A DNA stretch of 64,000 nucleotides from Bryobacteraceae bacterium (GCA_041946965.1 JBHGBM010000017.1:8534-72533); one strand, 5' to 3'. Shown: positions 1-15,500, numbered from the stretch's first letter. Notes: a model not told the origin generated them from the letters alone. Numbers and translations are program-made.

Positions 1-720
1 CTGACCAAACCGTTCTTGCAGTTCCGCCAGTTGGGACACACCAGGGAGCGCATCGTCCCGAACCGCGCGGTCTGGGCGGTGACGGGCAACAACGTGGCCG
101 TCTCGCGCGACATGGTGCGCAGGTGCTTCCGAATCAGGATCGATCCGCGCTGCGCTCAGCCGCATCTCCGGAAGAACTTCAAGCACCCGAACCTGGTGCA
201 GTACTGCAAGGCGGAACGTCCCGCGTTGCTCGCGGCGCTGCTGGTACTGATTCGCGCCTGGTACGCGGCGGGTAAGCCCGCGTTCGGCGGCACGGCGCTG
301 GGGACGTACACGGCTTGGAAGGAGATGGTGAGCGGCATCCTCAAGAACGCCGGCTTCGAGGACTTCCTCGGCAACCAGCGCACCCTGTACAGCGAGATGG
401 ACGTCGAGAGCGAGGAGTGGGAGTCGTTTCTGGCGCAAATCCACGAGCGCTTCGTGGCCGTGGAGTTCAGCGTGGCCGACATCGTGTCCATGATCCACGG
501 CGGGACGATTACCACGCTTCCCCGCGAGGTCGCGCGGATCTACGGCCAGTCCACCTCCCACAAGGAGACGAAGCCTAATCCCTTCTTCGCCGTGCAACTC
601 GGCCACATCCTGCGCGCTCATCGGGGGACGCGCTACGGCGAGCAGGAGATGTACCTGGAGCGCGGCACGGAGGACCGGCACCGTAAGGTCGTGCGCTACC
701 GCATCCGCATGGGGCGGTAG
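1..720 (+). CDS. C-terminal part of a P4/D5-type primase-helicase-like replication protein (5' end off-window)
   Basis: Frame 1 is open from base 1 to the stop at 718-720 (track ORF 16..720). The TGNN...RRCFRIRID segment followed by a helical C-terminal region resembles the part downstream of Walker B in phage/plasmid primase-helicases. It lies directly upstream of the iteron-like array. Confidence 0.4.
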   Translation: MTKPFLQFRQLGHTRERIVPNRAVWAVTGNNVAVSRDMVRRCFRIRIDPRCAQPHLRKNFKHPNLVQYCKAERPALLAALLVLIRAWYAAGKPAFGGTALGTYTAWKEMVSGILKNAGFEDFLGNQRTLYSEMDVESEEWESFLAQIHERFVAVEFSVADIVSMIHGGTITTLPREVARIYGQSTSHKETKPNPFFAVQLGHILRAHRGTRYGEQEMYLERGTEDRHRKVVRYRIRMGR

Positions 721-729
721 ACGAAACGG

Positions 730-963
730 TGCGGGCCTGCGGGTACTTGCGGGCATCTGGCGGGTGTGAGCGCGGCCGATACTCGCGGGTCGGCGGGCCT
801 TCTTTTCACATGCTTGCGGGCTCCTGCGGGTATTGCGGGTATTCCCGCGTATCCATGTGTGAAGGATGTGGATATTGTGCGCGCGTGAAAGATAGAGGGG
901 AATATACGCCCCGCGCCATTGAAGGCTGCCGGACCGATACCCGCATCCCCCGCAATACCCGCG
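730..963. repeat. Iteron-like array: direct (T)GCGGG(TAT) copies followed by inverted CCCGC(A/G) copies; putative origin or regulator-binding region
   Basis: TGCGGG occurs at 730, 738, 748, 815, 825 and 834, with variants TGGCGGG at 758, TCGCGGG at 783 and CGGCGGG at 791. Inverted CCCGCG/CCCGCA occurs at 844, 940, 949 and 958, with CCCCGCG at 909. Spacing is mostly 8-10 bp. GCGGG-TATT-CCCGC forms a palindrome at 835-848. Confidence 0.6.
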
Positions 964-1073
964 AGTGGGTCCTTCCGGGCGATTCCCGGCGGCGCGTTAC
1001 GCGATTGCACGATTTCGCCAGCGTCAGCAGAAAAAACAGGTGGTCGGTTGCCACGGAGGGGAGGGTGGAGCAC

Positions 1074-1523
1074 ATGGGCGTCAGCATTCGAAGCTATGCC
1101 AGGCACCGGGGAGTGAGCCATACCGCCGTGCAGAAGGCGATTGCCGCCGGGCGCATCTCGACCTTGCGGGACGGCTCCATCGACGCCACCGCAGCCGACG
1201 TGGAGTGGGAACGCAACACGTTCTACCCGCGGCCCGGCGGCGATAGCGCCGAGTTCAATAAGACGCGTACCGTCCACGAGCACTACCGGGCGCGGCTGGC
1301 GAAACTCGCGTACGAAGAGAAGGTCGGAACGCTGGTGTCGAAGACCGAGGTACAGGCAGCCGCTTTCCGTGAGTACCGCCGGTTCCGCGATCGCGTGCTG
1401 AACATCCCGGATCGCGTCGCGGCGCAATTTGCCGCCGAGACGGACGAGGCCAGGGTGCACGAAATCCTGAAGCAGGAGATTCGGAAGGCGCTGAACGAAT
1501 ACGCCGATGGCGCCAGTTCATGA
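1074..1523 (+). CDS. HTH DNA-binding protein resembling a phage terminase small subunit
   Basis: ATG 1074 is preceded by GGAGGGGAGGGTGGAG. The N-terminus MGVSIRSYARHRGVSHTAVQKAIAAGRI is the HTH typical of small terminase/Nu1-like proteins, and the C-terminal half is coiled-coil. The upstream part of track ORF 729..1523 is the iteron region, not coding. Confidence 0.55.
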   Translation: MGVSIRSYARHRGVSHTAVQKAIAAGRISTLRDGSIDATAADVEWERNTFYPRPGGDSAEFNKTRTVHEHYRARLAKLAYEEKVGTLVSKTEVQAAAFREYRRFRDRVLNIPDRVAAQFAAETDEARVHEILKQEIRKALNEYADGASS

Positions 1524-1654
1524 CCGAGATTCGGGCTATCCGCAGACGCATACGCCGGCCGCCGGTGTGTGGGATGCCCGATTGGGCGCCGGAGCTTTCC
1601 TTCCCTTCACCCGGCGGAGCCGCCTCCCCGCGCGTTCTCCTTCGCGTGCACGGC

Positions 1655-1713
1655 GGCATAGCTTCCGAGGCAGAAAGTTGCACGTGCAACTTTTCATCCG
1701 CCTCGGCTATGCC
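1655..1713. other. Composite palindrome/hairpin (7+7+10 bp arms) with CACGTG core; possible bidirectional terminator or recognition site
   Basis: GGCATAG (1655-1661) pairs with CTATGCC (1707-1713). CCGAGGC (1665-1671) pairs with GCCTCGG (1700-1706). The inner element AAAGTTGCAC/GTGCAACTTT (1674-1693) is a perfect 20-bp palindrome, flanked by A-run and T-run. Confidence 0.5.
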
Positions 1714-1952
1714 CTGCAGCCACGGGACTGCCGCGCTTCGGCCCCACGGAGCCATGGGAACTGCGCATCGAGCAGGATGTTTGCTTCGTGGATCGTCTCC
1801 TCCCGCGGTTCGAAGGTGGCCGGTACGGGAGTGCGCATATCCGTTCGACGCAGCCGCAGATTGCGGGCGCGGGCGCGTCCGCCACGAGCGCCGGCGGCGC
1901 GGCAGGCGGCGGTGGTCAGGTTGAAGTACGGCGAAGTGTGATCCAGGTTCAT
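1707..1952 (-). CDS. Hypothetical small protein (81 aa), divergent from the 2139 operon
   Basis: By hand count, third codon positions are strongly G/C-biased in this frame. The overlapping + ORF 1520..1924 has G/C concentrated at position 2 and is Arg/Pro/Gly-rich, which marks it as a shadow frame. I recognise no family. Confidence 0.3.
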   Translation of the reverse strand: MNLDHTSPYFNLTTAACRAAGARGGRARARNLRLRRTDMRTPVPATFEPREETIHEANILLDAQFPWLRGAEARQSRGCRA

Positions 1953-2006
1953 GCCCCTTGATTCATTGATCGGGTCGGCCCGAACCTCAAGGGCGAACTG
2001 CGCCCA

Positions 2007-2075
2007 CTATCACCCTCTGTGATAGTCAACAGCCTCGCCGTCCGTTCGAAGCGCGGCTATCACCCTTTGTGATAG
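2007..2075. promoter_or_regulatory. Two copies of a palindromic operator CTATCAC-N5-GTGATAG spaced 50 bp apart
   Basis: Site 1 is 2007-2025 (ctatcaccctctgtgatag) and site 2 is 2057-2075 (ctatcaccctttgtgatag). Both are followed by YCAAC. They lie between the divergent ORFs at 1707-1952(-) and 2139(+). Confidence 0.6.
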
Positions 2076-2138
2076 CCAACGCCGCGTCCGGCAGTTCAGA
2101 TTTCGCGGTTGTTTCAAATCCAAGCAAAGGAGTAGATC

Positions 2139-2837
2139 GTGCTCTACAAGAAGAACGCACCCATTCCGATCGCGTCCGCCACGGTACTGTCCGAACCGTT
2201 GCAGGCGGCCGCTGATCGGGTTGACGAGAAGGTGAACGAGCGCCGCCACGTGGACGAGGTAATCGCGGCCACTGAGAAGGCGCTGAACGAAGCTCGCCAG
2301 GAGGCCGCGGACGTTCGGGGTCAGATGGCGCAGGCGGAAAGCGCCGCCGCCCTCGGGGGCGGCGAAGGTGACCGGGCCCTGCGCCGGCGTCATGCGACGT
2401 GCCGGGATGCTGTTGAAGTCATCGAAGCCCGGCTGGAAGGTCTCCACCAGAAACGTCTGGAGGCCCTCCAGGCCGAAAACCGGGCGCACCGGGATCTGGC
2501 GCGCGAATACGACGCCTGGCGCCGCGAGCAGTGCAGCGTCATCCGGGCCGATATGGAACAAGCCGTCCGGCGCTGCGTGGCCGAACTGACCCGGCTCTAC
2601 GCCGCGGCAACCGCGGTGGGCGACAGCAGGACCACCGGAACGATCGGCAACATGCAGGTCTACTTGCCGGGCGAGCAGCGCAACCTCTGCAACCGGCAGC
2701 GGCTGAACTGGAAAAGCGACCCGGCGGCCATGGAGGTTTACACCAAACTTTCGAACGTGCGTGCCGCCATCATCCCGAAGCTGGCCGAACTGGCAGATGC
2801 ACCCCCGCCGATGGAGCGCACCGATGACGCTGCGTGA
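2139..2837 (+). CDS. Hypothetical protein, coiled-coil rich (232 aa)
   Basis: GTG start at 2139 with AAGGAG 8 nt upstream; the frame is long and coherent. No family recognised. Confidence 0.6.
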   Translation: MLYKKNAPIPIASATVLSEPLQAAADRVDEKVNERRHVDEVIAATEKALNEARQEAADVRGQMAQAESAAALGGGEGDRALRRRHATCRDAVEVIEARLEGLHQKRLEALQAENRAHRDLAREYDAWRREQCSVIRADMEQAVRRCVAELTRLYAAATAVGDSRTTGTIGNMQVYLPGEQRNLCNRQRLNWKSDPAAMEVYTKLSNVRAAIIPKLAELADAPPPMERTDDAA

Positions 2838-3021
2838 ACGCCTCGAACGAAGCGCGGACCCCATTGCCGCCAGAAGACTGCTTGAGCGCCGTCCGGCCCT
2901 CCGGGGCCGGCGGCGCATCTCGGCCCGCCTGGTGCCGCCCGGCGAGGACTTCCGGCACTGGGCCCTGCGCCAGGGTTGTAGCGATCTCGCCGATCGCATC
3001 AACGATCAGGTTCAGCAATAG
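2824..3021 (+). CDS. Hypothetical small protein (65 aa)
   Basis: ATG 2824 overlaps the 3' end of the preceding gene (stop at 2835-2837) by 14 nt, consistent with translational coupling. It lies in frame within track ORF 2761..3021. Confidence 0.4.
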   Translation: MTLRERLERSADPIAARRLLERRPALRGRRRISARLVPPGEDFRHWALRQGCSDLADRINDQVQQ

Positions 3022-3030
3022 GAGGAAAGA

Positions 3031-3363
3031 ATGTACACCGAATATCCCGACGAGTTCTACACGCTGGTCGACCAGTACGTCGGCCGCTATGGCGGGCGCC
3101 CCGAAGCCGCCGACGCGGTTCGGCGGGCCCGGCCCGATCTGCGTCCCGCCCCGGCGACCCGGAACGTCCCGTCGCCCGGCCCTCACGCGGCGATCATGAC
3201 CGGCAGCGCCGAGCGCCAGTTGGACGCGCTTGCGAGACGGATCGCGGCCGAACGGCGGATCACCTACGCCCAGGCGTATGTGGAGGCCCTGCATGCGCAG
3301 CCCGCGCTGTACGCGCAGTATTTAAACGAGCACGAAGCGGCGATGGGCACCCGCCGTGGCTGA
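3031..3363 (+). CDS. Hypothetical protein (110 aa)
   Basis: ATG 3031 is preceded by AGGAGGAAAGA. No family recognised. Confidence 0.55.
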   Translation: MYTEYPDEFYTLVDQYVGRYGGRPEAADAVRRARPDLRPAPATRNVPSPGPHAAIMTGSAERQLDALARRIAAERRITYAQAYVEALHAQPALYAQYLNEHEAAMGTRRG

Positions 3364-3580
3364 GTTCATCACCCCCTCCACCATGACGAAGTTCGAAGGC
3401 ACGCCCGTCCGTGCCCTCGACCAGGACGACCTTGTGTTCCTGGCACGGCGATGCCAGCGTCATCCGCGATGGGCCCTATGCTGGAGGGCGAACCCCGCCG
3501 CCGTGCGGGTATGTGCCGGCGATACGGCGCACACTGTTGTCGTCTGCACGTCCTTCGCCGGCAATTCGGAGGGTGCCTGA
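3356..3580 (+). CDS. Hypothetical small Cys-containing protein (74 aa)
   Basis: GTG 3356 overlaps the previous stop by 8 nt, and G/C is biased to codon position 3. ATG 3383 is an alternative start. Confidence 0.4.
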   Translation: MAEFITPSTMTKFEGTPVRALDQDDLVFLARRCQRHPRWALCWRANPAAVRVCAGDTAHTVVVCTSFAGNSEGA

Positions 3581-3722
3581 GCAAGCGGTCGGAGCTCATC
3601 GTTCGCGCTTCGGAACGTTGCTGGGCAGATCGGGACCTGGAACTGCTGAAATCAGATATGATTACGGGTCTCGGTTATTTCGTGGTGCTTGTACGGACGA
3701 AGTTACGAATATAGGAGGCAGC

Positions 3723-5246
3723 GTGCCAGATCCACTAACGTTCGAGGTCTTAAAGGAGGCAGTCGCTGGCGGCTCGGCTGCGTTTCGTTGTCGAACGAAG
3801 CTCGGTGCCATTGGAGAAGATGGCGATAAGGTCTTCCCCAGTACTTATGCCGGGGGCGTGTATGCCGTCGAGGATCGACGCATCGATGGCCGCATCGTTC
3901 GTTGCGTGGTCCTCGATAGTGTTCAGAGCCAGGCGAACCGCATGGAAGAACTCCTGCAGGAAGCGTTCCTTCCCAACTGGAGGGAAATGCCGACCGACGG
4001 AGATCCTTCCGATTGCGATCTGCCAATCGTCGCCGTCCATGTCGGGCGTCACGGCTGGATCACGTCTCTGACCGCACCGCATCGCATCCATGACGCGATT
4101 CTGCGCGATAGTGAACTCAACAGGACACGATTTCGAGATTCCGCTATAGGACAGGCAATCGTCGCGGCCCGCCTGCATAACGCGACGGCGTTTTACCGGT
4201 TCTGCCCCACAAGCCTGATCTTCGGGACCTGGGACTCGACAGCTGGCGAAGGCCTGGAGTCCGCCAAGATCCCAAGGGCCGTGGTTTCGGAAATCGTCGG
4301 CATCGATATCACACCAGGGGTGCGTACGGCCAGCCGTATCGACCCACTGGGGATCGAGCGCATGGAGACGACGTTCTATCGAAGAGGGAAATCAGGCTGG
4401 ACGTTCGAGGAGTCGGAAGCCGACAAAAAATACAAAAAGGGAAAAGGGTGGACCGAAGACATCAACCAAGCCGACAAGGATCCGAGCGGGAAACCAATAG
4501 AAACGAAGCCGATCATCTGGGGGACGAAGCCGTCAGATATCAATCACGGCAACGTGGTGCCCAATATTCCCCGCTTCGAACAGAAAGAGGTCCGAGACAA
4601 CAACCTCGGGAGGCTTACGGACATTCTGGAGTCGAATTCCCTCAGGCTGCGGGTGGACTTGGATTCCGCTGATAGCCGCCTGGAGAGCCACACGGCGTTT
4701 GATAGCGACAGGATGAGAATTCGCCCAGGCGCCATTAAGCCGGGTGGAGTAACCATGGCGTATGCTCTCCATACGTGGACTCTGTCGCTGACCCAGTTGC
4801 GGCGATTGCGGTTTCCGCTAGACCAGTCGAAGGCGAATGAGGCCGAACAGCGCAACTGTGCAGCACGAACCGTTCTCGCCAGTTTGGCGATTTACGGCTT
4901 GGCGCTACAACAAGAGCAGGGCTACTGGTTGCGTTCGCGATGCGAACTCATTCCGATTGCTGCCAAGGAGGGCAACGGTGCAGTGCTCCAGTTGATCAAC
5001 GCCGATGGCACCACTGCCGATTTCCAGGTCCCTACCATCTTGGCCGCGAAGCAATTGTTCGAGAAGGCCGTCCATGAGGCCGAAAGCGAGTCCAACGCAT
5101 CAGCCATCCACTGGGAAAAGCAGATCATCCGACTGACGCCGTCACCGCAATTGAAAAAACTCGTAGAGATGAGCGAAAAGCGTCAGCCGACGGGAGGTGA
5201 AGAGGAAGAAGTCGCGGTGGCCGACGATGCTGGCGATCAAAATTGA
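3723..5246 (+). CDS. csb1: Type I-G/I-U Cas7-like protein (Csb1 / GSU0053 family), unusually long (507 aa)
   Basis: GTG 3723 has AGGAGG 5 nt upstream. KVFPSTYAGGVYAVEDRRIDG...VVLDSVQSQANRMEELL matches the Csb1/Cas7u signature as I remember it (VFPPTY...LDSVQSQANR.E). The track ORF 3411 start is an upstream extension. Confidence 0.75.
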   Translation: MPDPLTFEVLKEAVAGGSAAFRCRTKLGAIGEDGDKVFPSTYAGGVYAVEDRRIDGRIVRCVVLDSVQSQANRMEELLQEAFLPNWREMPTDGDPSDCDLPIVAVHVGRHGWITSLTAPHRIHDAILRDSELNRTRFRDSAIGQAIVAARLHNATAFYRFCPTSLIFGTWDSTAGEGLESAKIPRAVVSEIVGIDITPGVRTASRIDPLGIERMETTFYRRGKSGWTFEESEADKKYKKGKGWTEDINQADKDPSGKPIETKPIIWGTKPSDINHGNVVPNIPRFEQKEVRDNNLGRLTDILESNSLRLRVDLDSADSRLESHTAFDSDRMRIRPGAIKPGGVTMAYALHTWTLSLTQLRRLRFPLDQSKANEAEQRNCAARTVLASLAIYGLALQQEQGYWLRSRCELIPIAAKEGNGAVLQLINADGTTADFQVPTILAAKQLFEKAVHEAESESNASAIHWEKQIIRLTPSPQLKKLVEMSEKRQPTGGEEEEVAVADDAGDQN

Positions 5247-6675
5247 GTATCTCACCGGCGTGTGCATGGCGACACGCCACAATGATCCCAGCCGCTCCAG
5301 TCCCGAGTGGCCGCCCCATCCTGACCGACTGTTCTCGGCACTCGTGGCCGCGGCCGGTAGCATGAGCGCTCCTGACCTGGAGCCGCCTGACCTCGCTAGA
5401 CGTGCATTGAAGTGGCTGTTGGAGCCATACCCAACGGGTGCTGGTGGCGCGCCACAACTTTGGGCATCCGAGGCCCGGGTTCGTTCGGCGCCCGACGTGC
5501 ATCTGCCTGCCAATCCACATCCGGATGAGAGAACCGTCTTCGGGATGTTGCCGGTGTATCGCAAAAAGGCGGCTCTTCCGGTCCCCGCCGTTATACCCGA
5601 CGAACCGGTAGTGTATTTCATTTGGCCACATGCCGAACCCGCCCTACACCTTGATGAGCTTCGAGCGATTTGTGACCGCGTCACGTATCTAGGCCGCTCG
5701 CGTTCACTCGTTCGCGCCTCGATCGCTGAAGACCCGCCGGCGCCCAGCTACGTTCCAGGTGAGCCGGCGGACCTTGAACTCCGTGTACCGGATTCCAACC
5801 GACTTGAATACCTGCTCAACAAGTATGAGCGCGACGGCGGAAAACCTGTTCCGTCCTTGCCAAAACCGTATCGCCGGACCGACCGGCAACTTCATACGGA
5901 GAAGCCCGTTGACAGCGTATTTGAGCGCTTTTGGGTGTTCCGGCCTCGTCGAGGAGACCCGCCGTTGCCTCTTGTGTCGACGCTGAGGTTGACCCAAGCG
6001 CTACGGAGGGCTCTGATCGCCGCAATTGAGGAGGACCAACGATCGCGCGGCATCGATCCACACGTGCCCGAGATCGTCCACGGGCATGGCAAGCACCCAC
6101 ACTGTGCCTATGTCGCCTTGCCCTTCGTTGATCCGCGCCAAAGGCGGGCCGACGGGATGATCAAGGGTGTTGCGTTGGTGTTGCCCCGCCGCATCGAGAC
6201 AGCAACTCTCCATGAGATTGCTCGAGGACTGATGTGGCTGCAGCGGAACGGACTCGTCATACCTGAAGTTGGTACCTGGCATATCGAAGAGGTTCCGCCC
6301 GATGATGCTCCGATCACAACTCTCGACCCACGCACATGGACAAACGCGGCGTGGGTTTGGACGACGGCGACGCCTATGGTGTTCGGCCACTACCCAAAAC
6401 CAAACCGCGGTGGAGAGGCAAGGGTCATTCTCGACAGTCTGAACATGATCGGTGTCGATCCCGAGCGTGTTATCGAAATCGGCGTGGGACGGCATTCCCC
6501 TCTTCACGGTGCAGCCCCGAGTTGGTGCTTCAAACCGCGTCAGGAGACAAACGACGGCTCGAAGCTCTGGCTGCGTCATGTAACGCTGCGATTCGACCGG
6601 CCGCTGTGTGGACCAATCGTTCTGGGGCGCACCCGCTATTTCGGGCTCGGGCTGATGCGACCCATGGGAGTTTGA
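5227..6675 (+). CDS. csb2: Type I-G/I-U Cas5/Cas6-fusion-like protein (Csb2 / GSU0054 family)
   Basis: The N-terminus MLAIKIEYLTGVCMATRHNDPSRSSPEWPPHPDRLFSALVAAAG matches the Csb2 signature (..L.GRY.AT....AEWPPHPARLFSALVAA). ATG 5227 overlaps the cas7-like gene by 20 nt. GTG 5197 is an alternative start. Confidence 0.75.
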   Translation: MLAIKIEYLTGVCMATRHNDPSRSSPEWPPHPDRLFSALVAAAGSMSAPDLEPPDLARRALKWLLEPYPTGAGGAPQLWASEARVRSAPDVHLPANPHPDERTVFGMLPVYRKKAALPVPAVIPDEPVVYFIWPHAEPALHLDELRAICDRVTYLGRSRSLVRASIAEDPPAPSYVPGEPADLELRVPDSNRLEYLLNKYERDGGKPVPSLPKPYRRTDRQLHTEKPVDSVFERFWVFRPRRGDPPLPLVSTLRLTQALRRALIAAIEEDQRSRGIDPHVPEIVHGHGKHPHCAYVALPFVDPRQRRADGMIKGVALVLPRRIETATLHEIARGLMWLQRNGLVIPEVGTWHIEEVPPDDAPITTLDPRTWTNAAWVWTTATPMVFGHYPKPNRGGEARVILDSLNMIGVDPERVIEIGVGRHSPLHGAAPSWCFKPRQETNDGSKLWLRHVTLRFDRPLCGPIVLGRTRYFGLGLMRPMGV

Positions 6676-6677
6676 TA

Positions 6678-9600
6678 ATGCCGGATCTTGAAGCCGTGCA
6701 GTTCGCGGATTTCTATGAGGCTGTGCACGGCTACGAGCCGTTCGAATGGCAGAAGCGGCTGGCTAAAGACATTCTTGAACACCACAACTGGCGCGATGTT
6801 CGCGTTCCGACCGGATGCGGCAAGACAAGCGTGCTGGATATCGCCCTATTCGAACTTGCCCTCCAGGCTGACTTGGCTCCCGAAAACCGGACAGCCTCTC
6901 GTCGCATCTGTTTCGTGATAGACCGCCGCCTGGTTGTGGACGAGGTTACTGAACACGCGATGGAAATCCGCCGTGCTCTCGGAGAAGCGAGAGCCGGCCG
7001 ACGGCAGGAGACAGTTCTTTGTACCGTGTCTCAGCGGCTCACGAAAATCTCAGCCGACCGGGACCAAGTGCTGCGCGTCGTCCGGCTGCGAGGCGGGGTG
7101 TATCGGGACGACGGGTGGGCGGCAGATCCACTCACGCCGACGGTCATCATCTCGACCGTGGACCAGATAGGATCCCGTCTTCTGTTCCGCGGATACGGTG
7201 TGAGCCCACGCAGTCGCTCTGTCCAGGCTGGTCTGCTGGGCTTCGACACCCGCATCATTTTGGATGAGGCTCACCTGGCGAGTGTCTTCGCGACTTCGCT
7301 GCAACACGTGCGCAGTTACCAAACTGATGCGAAGCGTCCGCCCCTTGGCCGTCAACGCGGCGTAAGCCTTGTTCGGATGTCGGCGACTGTGCACGAGAAA
7401 GATTGCTTCGAGCTCACGCGGGAAGAGCGAAAGGACAGGCGACTAGCGGCTCGGCTCAATGCCCATAAATGTGCCGAGTTGATCACGGTCAACGTGGAAT
7501 CGATCAGCAAGGACGAGCGAAAGAAGCAGCCACGCAAAGCCAAGGAGGTAGAGGCCAAGAATCGGCAGCACTTCGGCACCAGTGTCGCCGCTCTTGCGGA
7601 AACGTTCGCTTACGAAGATCCAGGGAAGCAAACTGGGCCTCGTGTTATCGGCGTGGTCGTGAACCGCGTTTCGACTGCCAGGACCGTGTTTGCCCGTTTA
7701 AGCACCACGAGAGGCGGGTACGCGCGCGACGTGATCCTTCTCACCGGCCGAATTCGGCCTTTCGATCGAGACCGGCTACTTCAGCTTTGGTTGCCCAAGA
7801 TCCGCGCAGGCCGCAACACTGATTTGAACAGACCGTTGTTCGTCGTCGGTACACAGACAGTGGAGGTCGGCGCGAATCTCGATTTCGACGCTCTTGTGAC
7901 CGAGGCGGCACCGTTGGATGCCTTGCGCCAACGGTTCGGCCGACTGGACCGTCTCGGCAGGCGACACGAACGTGGCTTGGCCTCCCCGGCGGCGATCGTC
8001 ATTCGGAGCGATCAGAAAAGCAGTGCGTTTGACGATCCGGTCTATGGCACCGAAACCGCAGAGACCTGGAGGTGGCTTAACAGCAAGGAGGTTCTCGGGA
8101 AGGCGAAACGCATCGATTTCGGCGTGAACCACCTCGATCCGAAGCTCAGCAAGTTACAGCCGCCAATTTCGCCGGGCATCATGGCACCTTTGCTGTTCCC
8201 ATCTCATCTCGACGCGTGGGCGCAAACCAACCCGGAGCCGGATCCGGATCCCGACCTGGAGCCGTTCCTGCACGGTACTGCAGGATCTGCTGCTGACGTC
8301 CAGATCGTCTGGCGAGCGGATCTTATCGACAGCAACGAGCTCCAATGGCGAGAAATCGTCGCTCTCATGCCACCACGCACCCGCGAGTCGCTGCCGGTTC
8401 CGGTCTACGAAGTGCGGAGTTGGCTGCGTAAGCAAGCCGCAGGCGAGATTGCGGATCTTGAAGGGGGCGCGTTCGACGTATCGGCTGAAATGGGTGCGCC
8501 ATATCGTCGCGTGCTGCGATGGTTCGGTTCCGATGATAGTCGTACCCGTCTTGCCGGTCCCGATCAAGTGAGGCCGGGCGATACAATCGTCGTTCCGGCA
8601 AGCTACGGTGGCGCGGACACTTTCGGCTGGAATCCTGAATTCAGTGAGGCTGTTTCGGACGTGGCCGAACCTTGTCTCGTGCAACTCGTTAACTCCTATC
8701 CGAAAACCGCTCTAAGGCGTCCGAGAGTTCGGCTCCGGTTGCATCCACACCTTCTCCCCAGCGCTAAAGAATTGCCGCTTGACCGAGTTCGCGGATTCTT
8801 TCGCGCCGCCGTGGATGCGGTCCGAGCGCACGACCAAGACTCTTGGCCTGCAATTGAACGGATCTTGCGTGCCATTCGGCCTTATGTGAGGGAGGCGGAA
8901 CGCGCAGCGGCTATCGATGCAATCCTACAGGCAAAGGATCGACCACAGGTCCGTCTTTACCCGCAGCAGGATGCTTTCGTGTTGACCGCTGATGTACGAC
9001 TTCCCCTCGCCGCGCCCGAAGCTCCGGCATCAGAGAATGCGGAGTTTGAGGAACCCGAAGACGACGAGATGTCGTTCAGATCCGACGGCCACCCGATTAC
9101 ACTCCTGAAGCATACGGCTGCTGTGCGAAAGAGTTGTGCCAAATTCGCCCGAGCGTGCGGGCTGGAAAAGGAGGTGCGCCGCGCTCTACTGCTCGCAGCC
9201 TCCTGGCACGACGTGGGAAAGCGCGATGCGCGATTCCAGGCATGGCTTCACGGCAGCGAGGTAAAGGCCCTCGTGGCACTTGCAGGCGATGAGCCACTGG
9301 CAAAGTCTGGCCGCGATCCGCGGAACTGGAAATCTTCTGAGGTATTTGGGTATCCGAAGGGTTTGCGCCATGAGTTCGTTTCGGTGCGTCTGCTGGAGCA
9401 GGCGGTTGGCCTACGGTGTTCTGACCCTGACCTCGCGAGGCTCCTGGTCGGCACCCACCACGGCTATGGGCGAGCATTCGCGCCGGCAACTGAGGATAGG
9501 AAACCAGTCGAGGTGTCTGTTCGTGTGAACGGAAACCTGATCGCCGTCTCGACTGACCACCGACTCTACCGTGCTGATAGCGGTTGGACGGATCTGTTCT

Positions 9601-9692
9601 GGAGAATGGTGCGGCGGTATGGTTGGTGGGGGCTTGCCTTTTTGGAAGCCCTGCTCATTACCTCCGACCGACTCGTGTCAGCGCGAGAGTGA
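6678..9692 (+). CDS. cas3: Cas3 helicase-nuclease with C-terminal HD domain (type I-G/I-U architecture), 1004 aa
   Basis: ATG 6678 lies 2 nt after the csb2 stop. The protein has Walker A VPTGCGKTS, DEAH box ILDEAHLAS, and C-terminal HD motifs LLKHT...SWHDVGKRD...GLRHEF...VGTHHGYGRAF. Confidence 0.8.
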   Translation: MPDLEAVQFADFYEAVHGYEPFEWQKRLAKDILEHHNWRDVRVPTGCGKTSVLDIALFELALQADLAPENRTASRRICFVIDRRLVVDEVTEHAMEIRRALGEARAGRRQETVLCTVSQRLTKISADRDQVLRVVRLRGGVYRDDGWAADPLTPTVIISTVDQIGSRLLFRGYGVSPRSRSVQAGLLGFDTRIILDEAHLASVFATSLQHVRSYQTDAKRPPLGRQRGVSLVRMSATVHEKDCFELTREERKDRRLAARLNAHKCAELITVNVESISKDERKKQPRKAKEVEAKNRQHFGTSVAALAETFAYEDPGKQTGPRVIGVVVNRVSTARTVFARLSTTRGGYARDVILLTGRIRPFDRDRLLQLWLPKIRAGRNTDLNRPLFVVGTQTVEVGANLDFDALVTEAAPLDALRQRFGRLDRLGRRHERGLASPAAIVIRSDQKSSAFDDPVYGTETAETWRWLNSKEVLGKAKRIDFGVNHLDPKLSKLQPPISPGIMAPLLFPSHLDAWAQTNPEPDPDPDLEPFLHGTAGSAADVQIVWRADLIDSNELQWREIVALMPPRTRESLPVPVYEVRSWLRKQAAGEIADLEGGAFDVSAEMGAPYRRVLRWFGSDDSRTRLAGPDQVRPGDTIVVPASYGGADTFGWNPEFSEAVSDVAEPCLVQLVNSYPKTALRRPRVRLRLHPHLLPSAKELPLDRVRGFFRAAVDAVRAHDQDSWPAIERILRAIRPYVREAERAAAIDAILQAKDRPQVRLYPQQDAFVLTADVRLPLAAPEAPASENAEFEEPEDDEMSFRSDGHPITLLKHTAAVRKSCAKFARACGLEKEVRRALLLAASWHDVGKRDARFQAWLHGSEVKALVALAGDEPLAKSGRDPRNWKSSEVFGYPKGLRHEFVSVRLLEQAVGLRCSDPDLARLLVGTHHGYGRAFAPATEDRKPVEVSVRVNGNLIAVSTDHRLYRADSGWTDLFWRMVRRYGWWGLAFLEALLITSDRLVSARE

Positions 9693-9712
9693 TTCCGGAG
9701 CGAGATAGGAAA

Positions 9713-10657
9713 ATGAGCGACCTAGAACTTTCTGGCCTCCGAGGGCACCACCCTCTCGGGTTTCTTGCCGCGTGCGGAGTCTTGCGTTCTTGCACTGGGC
9801 CCACGGGTGACGGCAAGGTCAGCCTGTACTGGAAACACGCGGCTGATGGATCCGGGTGGATTGCGGTGCTACATCGGTATAGCAGTTTGCAGTCGAGATC
9901 TTTGTTACGGCTCCTGATCTGCAAAGCCGGAATTCAACGGAAATCGCCTGCGCTAAACTGGTCGAGCAAGATCGATGATCGAAAAAAATACCGCGAGGTG
10001 GGGCTCTCGCTAATTGAGAACCGATCGGATCTGGGCAATTCGGATGCGCTGGCTGTTCTGGCCGCACTCGCATCTGACATAGTCGCCGACGGCAAGGATA
10101 AGCTTGAAGCAACTTCGCTGGATCTGACCTCAGGCAACCAACGGTTACTGAAGTCATTGCAGGAACTCTCGGCGGATCTCTCCAAGTCGCCAAAACGTTC
10201 CGGCTATGTGCCGCCGGGCGCGGCTGCATTTAAGGAAGCGATCTTCGGTCCCTGGCGATATCAGGACACCGCGCACTCCTTGGGGTGGGATCCTCAGACG
10301 CAACGGTTGCATGCGCTCCGCCACAAACTGCCAGAACAGGACAAAGCAGGTCGATCTGTGCGTGCAGCAGTCTTCCTGGCCAGTCAAGCTTTCCCACTAT
10401 TCCCGTGCTTTGCTGTGAACGGGAAGCTTCGCACGACTGGTTTTCACCCGGAAGGTCGCGACGAATACTTTGCGTGGCCCATCTGGCGGGAACCGATCTC
10501 GTTGTGCGCGCTCAGATCATTGCTCGCCCTGCCGTTAAATGATCTGAGGATGCGGGGAGTTGAAGTCGTTTACCGCTGCCGGCGCGTACGCACGGGTGGC
10601 TCAGAGGGGAACTATCAGATCTTCAGTAATGCGGAGGAGTGGCCATGGCGCGCGTAA
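9713..10657 (+). CDS. Short Cas8u/Csx17-like (or Csb3-like) candidate subunit, 314 aa
   Basis: ATG 9713 lies 20 nt after the cas3 stop. The N-terminus LSGLRGHHPLGFLAACGVLR resembles the Csx17/Cas8u N-terminal motif (GC...PL..YLKALGVLRL). The C-terminus has a FAWPIW.EP motif. The protein is much shorter than the roughly 700-aa Csx17 as I recall it. Confidence 0.45.
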   Translation: MSDLELSGLRGHHPLGFLAACGVLRSCTGPTGDGKVSLYWKHAADGSGWIAVLHRYSSLQSRSLLRLLICKAGIQRKSPALNWSSKIDDRKKYREVGLSLIENRSDLGNSDALAVLAALASDIVADGKDKLEATSLDLTSGNQRLLKSLQELSADLSKSPKRSGYVPPGAAAFKEAIFGPWRYQDTAHSLGWDPQTQRLHALRHKLPEQDKAGRSVRAAVFLASQAFPLFPCFAVNGKLRTTGFHPEGRDEYFAWPIWREPISLCALRSLLALPLNDLRMRGVEVVYRCRRVRTGGSEGNYQIFSNAEEWPWRA

Positions 10658-10718
10658 TCCGTCCCGGCATTTTGCCGCGTTGTTCGATCCATCTCCGTGT
10701 GTCCGCGCGTTCTCTACG

Positions 10719-10963
10719 ATGGATGTGCGGGTGTCAACGGACAAGAGGCTGACGAAGCATGGCAACAGCTTGGCGCTGGTCATTGACCGGCCGATTTTGA
10801 ACTCCTGAAGATAGATGCCGAAACTCCGGTGAGTGCCACGAAGGATGGGCACCGCCTGAGCATCGAGCCCGCCGGACGATCCGAAAGAAGACAGAGGTTC
10901 GAGACGGCCCAAACGATGGCGCATGAGCATTACGGTAAGGCGTTCGAGAGGTTCGCTGACTGA
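10719..10963 (+). pseudogene. AbrB/MazE/SpoVT-type antitoxin gene disrupted by a 1-nt frameshift near 10799
   Basis: MDVRVSTDKRLTKHGNSLALVIDRPIL stops at 10806-10808. The +1-shifted frame continues ELLKIDAETPVSATKDGHRLSIEPAGRSERRQRFETAQTMAHEHYGKAFERFAD to TGA 10961-10963. Together they reconstitute a typical AbrB-fold antitoxin. There is no adjacent toxin partner. Confidence 0.5.
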
Positions 10964-11045
10964 TCGTTCCCGTCAATGACGCGGTTGGCGGTTCCCCGTG
11001 AAGGCGCGCCAACTGCGATACAATGTATCTCAGGAGGGACAAGCT

Positions 11046-11300
11046 ATGGCGACGACGATGGTTCACGTCCGCGTGGACGAAAGGACGAAGGATCGGGCCG
11101 CGAAGACACTGGCCGGGATGGGCCTGTCTGTGTCCGATGCCGTCCGCATGTTGCTGGTCCGCGTGGCCGCCGAGAAGGCGTTGCCCTTCGAGGTGAAGGC
11201 GCCTAACCCCACCACCGCAAAAGCCATGCGCGCCGCCGACCAGGGCAAGGGAAAACGGCACGGTTCTGCCGACGCACTCTTCAAAGACCTGGGGATCTGA
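11046..11300 (+). CDS. dinJ: RelB/DinJ family antitoxin
   Basis: ATG 11046 is preceded by CAGGAGGGAC. VHVRVDERTKDRAAKTLAGMGLSVSDAVRMLLVRVAAEKALPFEV...ADALFKDLGI aligns closely with E. coli DinJ. Confidence 0.85.
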   Translation: MATTMVHVRVDERTKDRAAKTLAGMGLSVSDAVRMLLVRVAAEKALPFEVKAPNPTTAKAMRAADQGKGKRHGSADALFKDLGI

Positions 11301-11303
11301 TCG

Positions 11304-11570
11304 TTGCGGACACCGATCAGCGGCGCCCAGTTCCGCCGCGATGCGAAACTGGCGCAGAAGCGCGGCAAGGACATGGCGAAACTGCGGGAAGTTATCCTGC
11401 TGCTTGTCGAGGGAAACCCGCTGCCGGCCCGGTACAAGGATCATCCGCTCAGCGGCGAGTGGAGCCACCACCGCGATTGCCACATCGAGCCGGACTGGCT
11501 GTTGATCTACAAGGTGAACGGTGACGACCTCTACCTGGTCCGCACGGGAACGCATTCGGACCTGTTCTGA
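11304..11570 (+). CDS. yafQ: YafQ/RelE family mRNA interferase toxin
   Basis: TTG 11304 lies 3 nt after the dinJ stop. FRRDAKLAQKRGKDMAKL...PARYKDHPLSGEWSHHRDCHIEPDWLLIYKV...RTGTHSDLF matches YafQ (KLAQKR.KDM...YKDHPL.G.W...RD.H.EPDW.LIYK...RTGTH..LF). Confidence 0.85.
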   Translation: MRTPISGAQFRRDAKLAQKRGKDMAKLREVILLLVEGNPLPARYKDHPLSGEWSHHRDCHIEPDWLLIYKVNGDDLYLVRTGTHSDLF

Positions 11571-11741
11571 GTCTGCCGCGAAGCCACGGATTGGGTCGGG
11601 GTCGAGTTCGACCCAAAGCAATCGTCTGTGGTTTGCGAGCGCGGCACCCGCCGCGCGGGAAGAAGCGTCACCTGCTTCATCGTTCTCGCCACGGGTCCAG
11701 GCGGTACGTGAGCGCGTGCGCCGGTGCAACCCCGCGAGTGC

Positions 11742-11765
11742 CAGGCACTCACGCAGGCACTCACT
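11742..11765. repeat. Tandem 12-bp repeat CAGGCACTCAC(G/T) x2 near the element end
   Basis: caggcactcacg at 11742-11753 is followed directly by caggcactcact at 11754-11765. Confidence 0.5.
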
Positions 11766-11824
11766 GGGTTAGAGCGAGCATAGCGGATGGAACGACTAGA
11801 AATCGGCAACCCATAACAAACAAA

Positions 11825-11860
11825 AGACTTAGCCGCAAACTACTGAATCTGCTAAGTCTT
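11825..11860. other. 10-bp inverted repeat (AAGACTTAGC ... GCTAAGTCTT) with 16-nt loop, adjacent to the att-like site
   Basis: Arms at 11825-11834 and 11851-11860 are perfectly complementary, and the surrounding sequence is AT-rich. Confidence 0.5.
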
Positions 11861-11881
11861 TGAAAACACGTCATCCCCACA

Positions 11882-11926
11882 TTCGTAATCAGCAGGTCGC
11901 CGGTTCAAGCCCGGCGGGTGGCTCCA
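11882..11926 (+). other. tRNA-Thr(CGU)-like 3' half only (anticodon loop to CCA); putative attR of the integrated element, not a functional tRNA
   Basis: The fragment reads ttCGTaa loop, tcagc, variable aggtc, T arm gccgg-ttcaagc-ccggc, acceptor 3' strand gggtggc, t, cca. The upstream 30 nt has no matching 5' acceptor strand (gccaccc), no D arm and no 5' anticodon stem strand. Confidence 0.6.
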
Positions 11927-12539
11927 TCGAATTGAAACGGAGTCCGTCCATCACAATCGCCGATTCCCAAGAAGTTGTACGCCCAAGACGATCCGTCCTT
12001 ACCAGCACGCGTTCAACGCGGCCGACATCCGGCCAGCGTTGAAATCCGGCGTGCCGGCGACGATGGAGAGCGGCCGCTTGAAGGCCATCCGCGCAAGGCC
12101 TTGCGCGGCGCCTTACAGTGAAGATGAAGTCCATGGTGCTGCGCTTTAACGAACGACGAGCGACCGAAGCTGCCGTGCGCTTCCTCAGATGGCGACGCGA
12201 TGATCGTGGATGCACGGCGGTTGGAGGCCGAGATCGCGGCCGGCCTGGCTCTGGTTCGCGAGAAGTGTTCAGCCGCCACCCTGAGACTTGTGCAAGACGG
12301 CGTGGTTGCATCGCTCTTCACCAGACCGAAAATCCTTCGTTCTTGCCGAGAACACTGGCGGCGATAGAGGCGCGGACTGCCTGGGCTCGCCGCGCGTCCG
12401 CGCGTTATGCCTGGTGCAGCCCCTACCCTACCCCACCACCAGACAAAACAGACCCCTTAAGCATTCCAGGGTGTATACTGTCCCCCGGGCCGGCTGCGAG
12501 AGCGGCATCCCGGCCCCGGATCGGTCTTCAGGAGGTTTT

Positions 12540-15500
12540 ATGCGGATTCAGTTTCTGTGCCCGATCCTGGCGCTGGCGAGTGTTCCCGGGTTGCAGGCCC
12601 AGGATGCCCGCGGCGACATCATCGGGCGTGTCAGCGATCCTACGGGCGCGGTGGTGGCCGGCGCCACCGTCCGCGTGGTGAGGACCGCCGCCAACGTTCA
12701 AAACACGGCGATCACCAACGAGACAGGCGATTACACGCTGGCGTTCCTGATCCCCGGCGAGTACGAATTGTCGGTCGAGGCTGCCGGCTTCAAGAAGTTC
12801 GTGCAGCAAGGCATCAGCGTGCGCGTAAGCGAGAGGATCACCATGAACGTCACGCTGGAGGTCGGCTCCATTACCGAGACGGTGAAGGTGGTGGGCGAGG
12901 CGCCCCTGGTGGAATCCGCCACGGCATCGCTCGGCCAGGTGGTCGATCAGAGACGCATCGCCGAACTGCCATTGAAAGACGGCAACCCGATGATGCTGGC
13001 GGATCTCAGTCCGGGCGTCTTTTTCACCGGCACCCTGGCGTGGTCGCGTCCGTTCGACAACAGTTCGCCGTCCTCCATGGCGACCAACGGCGCGCGGTCC
13101 GGCACGAACGAGTACACCATGGACGGCGCTCCCAACAACGGGGCGATGAACGGGAACGTGGCCTATGTGCCGCCCACGGCCGTGGTTGAGGAGTTTAAGA
13201 TCCAGACTTCCACTTTCGACGCCAGCGTCGGCTTCGCGACCGGCGCCGCGATCAACGTCAGCCTCAAGTCCGGCACCAACGACTTGCACGGCACCCTGCA
13301 CGAATTTCTCCAGAACACGTCCCTGGGGGCCAACAGCTTTTTCTCGAACACGGCCGGCCGGCCCCGTGACGTGAACCGCCAGAACCGCTGGAGCGCCTCC
13401 GGCACCGGGCCGGTGTACATCCCCAAGCTGTACAACGGCAAGAACGTGACCTTCTGGATGTATGGTTACGAAGGCATCGCGGACTACTTCCCGCGCGAGA
13501 CCCTGACCACCAGCGTGCCGAACGAGAAGCTGAAGCAAGGGGACTTCTCAGACCTGCTGAAGATCGGCTCGATCTACCAGATCTACGACCCCAAGACCAT
13601 CCAACTCGCGCCGGGCGGGCGCACCAGCCGCCAGGTCTTCCCGGGCAATATCATCCCCGCGAGCCGGATCGATCCTATCGCGGTCAAGCTCCTGCCGTTC
13701 TATCCAAAGCCCAACCTGCCCGGCACGGCGGACGGCACGAACAACTACACCACTCCGAATTCCGACACGGACAACTTCTTCAGTCACATCTTCCGCATCG
13801 ACCACAACTTCAGCGAGAATCACAGGGCCTTCTTCCGCGGGCACGCCAACCGGCGTTTCCAGCGCACCGCGCACCAGTTTCGCGGCACCGGCCTGCCTCC
13901 CACCAACGGAACCAACAACTGGCGGCAGAACCGGGGCGCCGTGATCGACGATGTGTACGTCTTCAGCCCGCAGTTCCTCATGAACACGCGCTACAGCTAC
14001 ACCCGTTACTTCGAGCCGGTTGACGCGCTGACCTCGGGCTGGAACCCGGCCGAGTACGGTTTCTCGCAGAAACTTGTGGACCAGATCAGAAGGGAAGATC
14101 CGCGGCGTCTCCAGTTGCCGGAAATCGCACCGGCGGGCTACTACGCCCTGAGCGCTTCCAACCGGGCCGCCAACCACGCTGAAATTCACGCGTTCGCCGC
14201 CAATTTCACCCGCATGGTGCGAGCCCACACGCTGCGTTTCGGCGCCGAGCACCGCATCTACCGCAACAACAACGCGGGGCTTGGCAGAGGTTCGGGAAGC
14301 CTGACCTTCAGCACGAACTGGACCCGGGGACCGTTGGACAACTCGCCGACGGCGCCCATGGGTCAGGGGCTGGCCAGCTTCCTGCTGGGATTGCCGACCA
14401 GCGGCTACATCAATGTCAACGACTCCCTGGCGCAACAGGCCACTGTTCCGTCGTTCTATTTCCAGGACGACTGGAAGATCACCCGCAAGCTGACCTTCAA
14501 TCTGGGCCTGCGCTACGAGATCGACCGCCCGCTGACGGAGCGCTTCAACCGCACGGTACGGGGATTCGATTCCGCCGCCGCCTTGCCCATCGAGGCGGCG
14601 GTGCAGGCCAACTACGCCCGCAGCCCGATTCCGGAGGTGGCCCCCGGCCAGTTCCGGGTGCGCGGAGGACTGACCTTCGCGGGTGTGGGCGGACAGCCGC
14701 GGACTCTCTGGAACACCAATACGAGGAACTTCTCGCCCCGCGCCGGCCTGGCCTACCAGATCAACATCCGTACGGTGGTCAGGGCCGGTTATGGCTTTTT
14801 CTACGACCTCGACCGCCAAAGCGTAAATCAGATCGGTTTCAGCCAGCAGACCTCCCTGGTTCCCACGGTGGATCAAGGCGTGACGTTCATAGCCAGCACA
14901 GCAGACCCCTTCCCGAACGGCTGGAGCCAGCCAACCGGCGCCTCGCTGGGCGTGATGACTTACGCCGGCCAGAGCATCAGCTTCTTCAACCCCGACCTGT
15001 TGACGCCTTACATGCAGCGGTGGCAGATCGGGGTGCAGCGCGAACTCGCCGGCCAGACGGTGGCGGAGCTGGCGTACGTCGGCAGCCGCGGGACCAGACT
15101 ACGGACAAGCCGGGCGCTGAACGCCGTGCCGCGGCAGTACTACAGCACGCTTCCGGCGCGCGATCAGCCGTGGATCGACTACATCACGGCGGCGGTCGCC
15201 AACCCGTTCTACCCGCTGCTGCCGGGGACCAGCCTGGCGGGGTCCACCGTCGGGCGTTCGCAATTGCTGAGGCCGTTCCCGCAGTTTACGGGCGTCAGCT
15301 ACACCACCAATGAAGGTTACTCCTGGTATCACTCGCTTCAGACGCGCTTCGAAAAACGGCTCTCCGCCGGTTACACCGTCTCCGTGGCGTGGACCTGGTC
15401 GAAGTTCATGGAGGCCACCGGCTTCCTCAACGAGACCGATCCGCGGCCCGAGCGGGTCATTTCGGACCAGGACCGCACCCATCGGCTGGTGGTCACGGGC

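Follow-up and report, generated by a model that had tools for sequence, protein, structure and literature searches.

A candidate satellite-like integrative element carrying an array-less type I-G CRISPR-Cas module at a tRNA-Thr(CGU) gene of a soil acidobacterium

We analyzed a 64,000-nucleotide (nt) stretch of the draft genome of Bryobacteraceae bacterium GCA_041946965.1 (JBHGBM010000017.1:8534–72533, on contig C67 in our numbering), referred to here as the window, in which positions count from its first letter. A genomic island occupies C67:3674–20414 (16.7 kb), and the window holds its right-hand 11.9 kb. From left to right, the island contains an integrase and regulatory genes, a replication gene followed by iterons, a gene for a small terminase (TerS) homolog, several small genes, a type I-G CRISPR-Cas cassette (3411–10657), and a dinJ-yafQ toxin-antitoxin pair, and it ends at a 3′ fragment of tRNA-Thr(CGU) (Table 1). 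A preliminary description, made from the window sequence, had named an iteron array, a small-terminase-like gene with a helix-turn-helix (HTH), small genes (which lie at 1707–3580), a cas-like cassette, and a DinJ-YafQ pair, and all of these are present. It had also taken all genes to be co-oriented, which holds on the plus strand from the excisionase-like gene to yafQ, save for a possible 81-amino acid gene on the minus strand, and it had put the genes about 310 nt short of the tRNA fragment; the yafQ stop codon lies 311 nt before it. The source assembly is a 157-contig draft of 6.23 Mb, with an estimated completeness of 95.6% and contamination of 4.3%, and the relatives compared with it all belong to other genera. 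The GC content is 61.9% for the island, 59.1% for the cas cassette, and 65.9% for the genome; the composition of the island is foreign.

The preliminary description proposed an integrated element ending at a 45-nt tRNA-Thr(CGU) fragment and predicted a direct repeat and a tyrosine integrase to the left of the window. Both were found there, and exact repeats bound the island. The 45-nt fragment (11882–11926) has a single exact twin on contig C67, and the identity runs to 46 of 46 nt (C67:3628–3673), 16,787 bp upstream and oriented alike. Chance cannot account for an exact 46-nt repeat. ARAGORN called no tRNA at either the right or the left copy, so the 5′ half is absent from the fragment in the window; the sequence preceding each copy is no tRNA 5′ half, and an Rfam scan of window 1–12500 returned no tRNA and no CRISPR repeat family. 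The extreme end of contig C7, in turn, carries 57 nt of a tRNA, 26 of which enter the repeat before the contig stops. Joined to the repeat, this 5′ half gives a 76-nt tRNA that is 100% identical to a gene in two related genomes, and ARAGORN identifies that gene as tRNA-Thr(CGU) in genome G091 and in nearly identical sister loci. A 78-nt ARAGORN call of tRNA-Thr(cgt) on contig C35 was a false lead, its sequence being unlike the tRNA-Thr(CGU) gene. The intact tRNA-Thr that had been expected to the left of the window is not there: the left copy is itself only a 3′ fragment, and the 5′ half is on C7, one island away. The expected geometry does occur in sister loci L121–L124, described below.

On its minus strand, the leftmost part of the contig (C67:1–3627), which extends to the left core, carries HsdS and HsdM of a type I restriction-modification system; we call it island A. 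The rest of island A is missing from the assembly, since a search of the assembly found no HsdR and no second integrase of this family. Because the left repeat is only a fragment, following HsdM and HsdS, and the tRNA 5′ half ends C7, the islands appear to be stacked in tandem, with the island studied here (island B) second or later in an array behind island A. The tRNA-Thr(CGU) site is a hotspot in the bacterial family. Fragments of this tRNA 45–49 nt in length are found downstream of it or elsewhere in several relatives, and in two other relatives contigs likewise break at nucleotide 56 of the tRNA, much as repeat-induced assembly breaks would. Breaks at nucleotide 56–57 are seen in three independent drafts (the end of G000:C7 in the present assembly and the starts of G005:C87 and G019:C66), which suggests stacked or polymorphic islands in all three. 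The gene block is absent at the intact tRNA-Thr(CGU) loci retrieved from relatives, where no integrase or other island gene lies within ~1.5 kb on either side, contig permitting.

A draft of 157 contigs with some estimated contamination, in which C7 breaks inside the tRNA, invites the explanation that the repeat and island were misjoined in assembly or that the contig comes from another organism in the bin. Against this, a single 78-kb contig holds both repeats and the entire island, its flanks are chromosomal in type with a GC content like that of the genome, and independent assemblies show the same geometry of integrase, attachment (att) site, and tRNA. We consider such an artifact very improbable.

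The integrase gene directly follows the left core, and its product has recognizable catalytic motifs (GLRxGE, HDTRH, and RYTH). Overlapping its start, on the same strand, is a gene for a 194-amino acid XRE-type HTH repressor. A gene of excisionase/AlpA type (HTH_17, 28.7 bits against a cut-off of 27) diverges from these two and is separated from the replication gene by a 135-amino acid open reading frame (ORF). Exact copies of a 27-nt tandem site are located inside the island, 50 nt past the left core and 114 nt short of the right core. Of the five occurrences of its 11-mer in the 6.2-Mb assembly, four are in the island. In the circular form of the element, the 27-nt sites would lie to either side of the core, like arm-type integrase sites, and they are predicted to be bound by the integrase. 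One arm of an inverted repeat, GCTAAGTCTTTGA, occurs at the right end of island A and again at that of island B, each time 18 nt before the core; its equal spacing before the two cores suggests that the islands use related recombination machinery. Taken from the sequence, integration at tRNA-Thr(CGU) by a tRNA-targeting tyrosine integrase is near certain.

Integrases 66–86% identical to that of the island occur in many metagenome assemblies. In four of the loci (L121–L124), the same tandem arm site separates the integrase gene from an intact tRNA-Thr(CGU). The sister elements share Xis (47–82% identity), the repressor, and two backbone genes, orf232 and orf110, with the island, and they have another replicase (Prim-Pol/PriCT/VapE) and no TerS. 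One of them, L127, from an ENA metagenome bin, is ~17.6 kb in length and terminates in a 46-nt fragment. Its cargo consists of an Avs2-like STAND NTPase, a radical-SAM protein with weak similarity to pVip, and a Fic toxin pair, and that of L124 of a TPR-CHAT protein. The closest relative of the segment from the helicase through the origin and orf232 to orf110 is L129, which carries a 947-amino acid gene in place of the cas genes and likewise no TerS. Because these elements differ in cargo, replicase, and TerS on a common backbone, the segment after orf110 and orf74 is a cargo hotspot occupied by different defense genes in different members, and the integration, replication, and packaging modules are exchanged between elements. 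The comparison places the island in a modular element family with a defense hotspot. The defense-type cargo named in the preliminary description is identified as a type I-G module and gains weight from the other defense genes at the same position in sister elements.

The window opens within the gene for the replication protein, whose C-terminus had been described as primase-helicase-like. No match to the 801-amino acid protein was obtained in Pfam or NCBIfam, and residues 353–795 match PHROGs families, including phrog_19930 (‘DNA polymerase/primase’). An AlphaFold2 (AF2) model has a predicted local distance difference test (pLDDT) score of 69 and is confident from residue 205 onward. The modeled part matches the helicase regions of poxvirus D5/E5, African swine fever virus PrimPol, and NrS-1, as well as the primase-helicase of the Staphylococcus aureus pathogenicity island SaPI5 (7ola). 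It contains a Walker-type GSGKG motif followed by IVFDN and TGNN. On the basis of this model, the protein is predicted to be a D5-like superfamily 3 (SF3) helicase, in keeping with the helicase half of the earlier description. Homologs with 67–70% identity across the helicase part either carry a fused Prim-Pol domain or lie next to one. A search of the species-genome collection with the helicase gave one match, an Acidobacteriota metagenome-assembled genome.

Directly downstream of the helicase gene is the iteron array. The motif GCGGGTAT is observed seven times in the window against 1.4 expected, with four of the seven in the array of TGCGGGTAT repeats. The motif and its layout recur directly 3′ of the homologous helicase gene in five elements without a TerS homolog (L033, L054, L055, L056, and L129). 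Since the motif tracks the helicase gene and not TerS, the array is best read as the putative cognate origin of the helicase. A cosB-like role, as a TerS-binding site, was considered and rejected: no clustering of the motif was seen upstream of TerS in the related phage contigs examined, and the motif goes with the helicase gene in elements lacking TerS. A search for a shared cos-like sequence gave none.

The TerS homolog is 50–55% identical to, and co-linear over its full length with, the TerS proteins of 33–49-kb phage contigs in IMG/VR. Its N- and C-terminal regions are conserved relative to phage TerS, and a good ribosome-binding site precedes the gene. A longer ORF (729–1523) reads through the origin and was rejected as an artifact. 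In the phage contigs checked with Pfam, TerS is followed by a gpA-type large terminase (TerL) and then by a lambda-family portal. TerS homologs occur in 45 of 151 genomes of the same bacterial family, and among the best 19 of these homologs every one is followed by gpA TerL sequence, degraded in four. Contig C67 has no similarity to TerL or portal, nor any detected TerL remnant. No Pfam or PHROG match to large terminase, portal, capsid, tail, holin, or head-tail connector genes was obtained among the ORFs of the island. Five prophage-like regions of related genomes (L115, which is G126:C243, L116, and L118–L120) have a gene for a D5-like helicase homolog (33–38% identity) that precedes co-oriented TerS and gpA TerL genes. 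L118 and L120 gave a portal match as well, and the helicase gene of G126 is directly before TerS. It is possible that such phages were the sources of the helicase-TerS block of the island or represent candidate helper types.

As an account of the whole locus, we slightly favor a site-specific integrative element with a TerS-based satellite lifestyle; the lifestyle taken by itself is plausible from the architecture, at about even chances. In the mechanism we envisage, the integrase would bind the tandem CAGGCACTCAC arm sites that flank the core and recombine this core with the tRNA 3′ end, regenerating the tRNA, and Xis would direct excision. The helicase would melt the AT-rich spacer between the two sets of iterons and replicate the circle. 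TerS would steer a helper phage's gpA-type large terminase toward island DNA, as happens in satellites of the SaPI and phage-inducible chromosomal island (PICI) type, and DinJ-YafQ would stabilize the element or abort infection. The term satellite-like in the preliminary description fits this architecture of integrase, repressor, Xis, helicase, origin, lone TerS, and no structural genes; it fits less well with the closest backbone relatives, which have no TerS.

That absence, in L129 and in sister elements L121–L127, is one of several observations that weigh against the satellite account, as TerS could for this reason be a recent passenger. No gpA TerL was found in the host assembly, at its 95.6% completeness, and no helper prophage is present in it. 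Pfam and PHROG scans recognized no gene for capsid morphogenesis, capsid size, or packaging interference. As to the primase half of the earlier primase-helicase assignment, no primase domain was detected in this copy of the replicase, in residues 1–205 outside the modeled part. The helicase has no relatives among IMG/VR viral contigs, and an exact scan of metagenome contigs with the right flank gave 0 matches. Lastly, the order from C7 through island A to island B extends across an assembly gap and is presumed.

Much of this would also suit a self-replicating integrative island that carries cargo but is no phage satellite, similar to a cargo-carrying tycheposon, moving by site-specific recombination, spreading by a route such as vesicles, transformation, or generalized transduction, and holding TerS as a passenger from a phage with an adjacent helicase and TerS. 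Elements with the same helicase and origin (L129 and L054–L056) and the sisters sharing integrase, Xis, and orf232 do without TerS, no capsid-redirection gene was found in the island, and the D5-like helicase and TerS are co-oriented and can be adjacent in phages of the family (G126:C243), making joint capture possible. A mere passenger would be less expected to remain full length and co-linear with phage TerS, with conserved termini and a good ribosome-binding site, and to lack any remnant of the TerL that follows every examined TerS homolog. We regard this alternative as a serious one, of about one chance in three by our judgment of the evidence, and thus less probable than the satellite account.

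The order of integrase, repressor, Xis, replication gene, and TerS is also that of temperate phages, and prophages of related genomes have homologous arrangements of helicase, TerS, TerL, and portal. The island could on these grounds be a decayed prophage no longer mobile, in which the end with integration, immunity, replication, and TerS survived and the structural genes were deleted and replaced. The 46-nt cores and 27-nt arm sites are, however, exact at both ends, the backbone genes are all intact, and TerL, portal, capsid, and tail genes have left no fragment. Moreover, several sisters of 9–18 kb share the backbone, without structural genes, at the same tRNA in different assemblies, a pattern that points to a maintained element type and not to independent decay. 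We judge a decayed prophage to be improbable.

Good descriptions of phage satellites and tRNA-borne defense islands exist for Proteobacteria, Firmicutes, and marine cyanobacteria, and Acidobacteriota are a dominant soil phylum. Our literature search found no description of either kind of element in Acidobacteriota. The island resembles PICIs in its size (10–20 kb), the integrase beside the att site, the divergent regulators, the replication protein followed by an iteron origin, its own small terminase, the lack of tail, portal, and lysis genes, and the position of accessory and defense genes after terS; its helicase fold matches the SaPI5 primase-helicase. By the functional criteria for PICIs, which include the SaPIs (de Sousa et al. 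2023, PMC10085698), up to four of five core components are found in the island and none of the forbidden genes. These are the integrase, the regulation module (HTH_17 with a divergent XRE gene), the small terminase, and, as a candidate primase-replicase, the helicase with its fold match and iteron origin, in which no primase domain was detected in residues 1–205; tail, holin, portal, and connector genes are absent. The capsid-morphogenesis component was not recognized, and PICI elements without one component are still accepted as ‘Type B’ (PMC10085698). The island differs from PICIs in lacking a recognized capsid-morphogenesis or packaging-interference gene, in the absence of TerS from its closest relatives, and in having no known helper and no recognized sequence relationship to known PICI genes. 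It also differs in its acidobacterial host, since Proteobacteria and Firmicutes account for >99.9% of the PICIs detected (PMC10085698).

Tycheposons, described in Prochlorococcus and other marine bacteria (Hackl et al., bioRxiv 10.1101/2020.12.28.424599), are alike, by description, in having a tRNA-targeting tyrosine recombinase, partial-tRNA flanks, tandem stacking by successive integration, as found here, and swappable integration and replication modules, and in comprising both cargo-carrying and PICI-like terS members. The authors of that study report that they never saw additional cargo in a PICI-like tycheposon (bioRxiv 10.1101/2020.12.28.424599), whereas the island combines terS with ~8 kb of cargo, in another phylum and another habitat.

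P4-like satellites reportedly carry defense hotspots, as Rousset et al. are said to have found in 2022. A further account of such satellites and hotspots is available (PMC13586616). Likenesses to P4 are the integrase, the AlpA-type regulator, the primase-helicase-type replicase, and the variable defense locus at a fixed position in the backbone. Unlike P4, the island has TerS, and its replicase is unrelated. No PHROG or Pfam match to P4 Psu, Delta, Sid, Epsilon, or the alpha-type primase-helicase was found in the island, which places it outside the P4-like group.

The cargo includes all four effector and interference genes of a type I-G system (formerly I-U; Shangguan et al. 2022, PMC9638904), present and intact: Cas7g/Csb1, Cas5-6g/Csb2, Cas3g with a C-terminal HD domain, and a Cas8g-like protein, in the same order as in complete I-G loci of the same bacterial family. 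Unlike those loci, the module has no cas1, cas2, or cas4 and no CRISPR array within the island, and its Cas7g is unusually long, with Pfam and TIGRFAM models covering residues 126–307 only. Gene starts in the cassette are approximate: the true starts are probably near 3720 for cas7g, 6690 for cas3g, and 9713 for the cas8g-like gene. The closest relative of the module, at 45–57% identity, is in G147:C70, with neither cas1 nor an array in its 25-kb contig. The G147 homolog aligns with Cas7g from residue 102, and the two share the extra C-terminal part (57% identity over ~500 residues).

Cas3g scores above the cut-off in 58 of 151 genomes of the family, making I-G the common subtype, and its repeats in the family are conserved (36 nt, ending ...ATTGAAGC). 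In a sample of 20 I-G loci of the family, the cas7-cas5/6-cas3-cas8 order found here is mostly accompanied by cas1 and an array. Neither the island nor the host assembly has a solitary or mini-array I-G repeat, and the I-G repeat signature is absent; a 21-nt match to an I-G repeat on contig C72 was dismissed, as it is within coding sequence and the remainder of the repeat is lacking. The sole CRISPR array found in the genome, and its sole Cas1, are at a type II-C locus (C133:1–4300, L024), where the C-terminal part of Cas9 at the contig start is followed by a type II Cas1, a small ORF, and ~23 repeats of 36 nt. The I-G module is presumably defense cargo that would be inert in this host unless a compatible CRISPR RNA (crRNA) were supplied.

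A genome of another genus has 7.8 kb of DNA (L025, G011:C25:289000–299500, at 675–8558) bounded by an intact tRNA-Thr(CGU) and a 45-nt fragment of it and containing cas3g, a 310-amino acid ORF, cas7g, cas5/6g, and a PIN-domain gene, with no integrase and no array. This module is of I-G type and only distantly related to that of the island. I-G-type repeat arrays are located elsewhere in G011 (in a complete I-G locus on C76) and in G147. As I-G systems are common, their repeats are conserved, array-less modules recur (in this island, G147, and G011), and G011 and G147 have arrays elsewhere, it is conceivable, though we think it unlikely, that tRNA-Thr(CGU) islands spread effector-only I-G cassettes that work with crRNAs from resident I-G arrays, the present case being a TerS-bearing satellite whose module is silent in a host with only type II-C. 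Such a satellite would bring extra interference capacity to new hosts.

At this locus, exact cores and arm sites delimit the element cleanly, and its conserved helicase-origin pair can be tested in vitro. The sister set displays module swapping and a defense hotspot, and a complete array-less I-G interference module on a mobile platform makes the role of orphan Cas effector modules directly testable.

Table 1. Features of the island. Positions are those of the window unless preceded by C67.
Feature	Position	Strand	Remarks
Tyrosine integrase	C67:3744–5024	-	Phage_integrase 5.8e-29 and SAM-like N-terminal domain; right after left core
Replication protein, 801 aa	C67:6848–9253	+	C-terminal 239 aa encoded by window 1–720; start 1,686 nt left of window
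Iteron-type origin (putative)	730–962		Direct TGCGGG(T/C)A(T) copies 730–843; AT-richer spacer 850–930; inverted copies 937–962
Small terminase (TerS) homolog, 149 aa	1074–1523	+	N-terminal HTH; phrog_57 6e-34; full length; no partner TerL
Long imperfect palindrome, 59 nt	1647–1705		Between convergent genes; read from sequence
Possible 81-aa gene	1707–1952	-	Divergent from orf232; from ORF list; no family match
Two CTATCAC-N5-GTGATAG palindromes	2007–2075		50 bp apart, in divergent promoter region
orf232	2139–2837	+	Conserved backbone gene
Small backbone ORFs	2834–3580	+	2834–3199; 3031–3363 (orf110); 3356–3580 (orf74)
cas7g (csb1)	3411–5246	+	Pfam Cas_GSU0053 2e-45; PADLOC Cas7g 5e-45; TIGR02570
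cas5/6g (csb2)	5197–6675	+	PADLOC Cas56g 4e-108; TIGR02165 6e-69, full length
cas3g, helicase and C-terminal HD nuclease	6336–9692	+	TIGR02621 1.7e-219; PADLOC Cas3g 1e-238; Cas3_HD residues 923–1054
cas8g-like, NCBIfam ‘Cas3-extension family’	9584–10657	+	PADLOC Cas8g 2.7e-63; NCBIfam NF049934 8e-63
Antitoxin-gene remnant	10880–10966	+	blastn 70% identity over 87 nt to L127:5499–5585; weak
dinJ antitoxin	10998–11300	+	phmmer against PDB DinJ 4q2u_A and 4ml0_A, ~1e-16
yafQ toxin, RelE-fold mRNA interferase	11304–11570	+	Pfam YafQ_toxin 3e-34; PDB YafQ 1.5e-26
Arm-type site (predicted)	11741–11767	+	CCAGGCACTCACGCAGGCACTCACTGG, a tandem CAGGCACTCAC; exact 27-nt twin at C67:3724–3750
Inverted repeat	11823–11863		AAAGACTTAGC ... 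GCTAAGTCTTTGA; 18 nt before core
attR core	11882–11927	+	tRNA-Thr(CGU) positions 31–76 plus one base; exact copy of C67:3628–3673

Between TerS and the cas cassette are the small genes of the backbone. Homologs of orf232 (31–53% identity) occupy the same position in L127 and L129, where they are followed by homologs of orf110 (47–64%) and orf74 (48%). The AF2 model of the orf232 product (pLDDT 90.5) is a long antiparallel coiled coil; a fold search gave no significant match in the PDB, with P4 Sid, also a coiled coil, at a non-significant E value of 1.2. A family search of the ORFs at 2834–3580 returned no matches. The position of the possible 81-amino acid gene is taken by a DUF3489 gene in L127 and L129, a weak positional analogy. 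The paired palindromes in the divergent promoter region are probably operators, and the long palindrome between convergent genes probably serves as a bidirectional terminator. The sister loci conserve neither.

Downstream of the cas cassette, the antitoxin-gene remnant resembles at the DNA level the antitoxin of the Fic toxin pair of L127, with no toxin gene here. The adjacent dinJ and yafQ genes are separated by 3 nt and encode homologs of a known antitoxin and RelE-fold toxin, the composition of a type II DinJ-YafQ toxin-antitoxin system. The dinJ coordinates in Table 1 replace an earlier ORF assignment (10976–11206). A dinJ-yafQ pair with 88.7% DNA identity is found at L127:2868–3647, just outside the att fragment and next to copper-resistance genes, whereas the pair is inside the island here; its placement in L127 may have been left by an older stacked element or by an imprecise event.

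Paralogs of island genes elsewhere in the host assembly amounted to none, apart from two weak integrase similarities. The first gene to the right of the island (12288–16007), in the chromosomal-type flank, encodes a 1,239-amino acid outer-membrane beta-barrel protein with a CarboxypepD_reg domain. An empty-site comparison through flank synteny was set aside, as the flanks of the relatives are not syntenic. The sole match to the right flank is a 76-nt segment just upstream of the beta-barrel gene (12110–12185), which shares 82% identity with sequence flanking this tRNA hotspot in G005.

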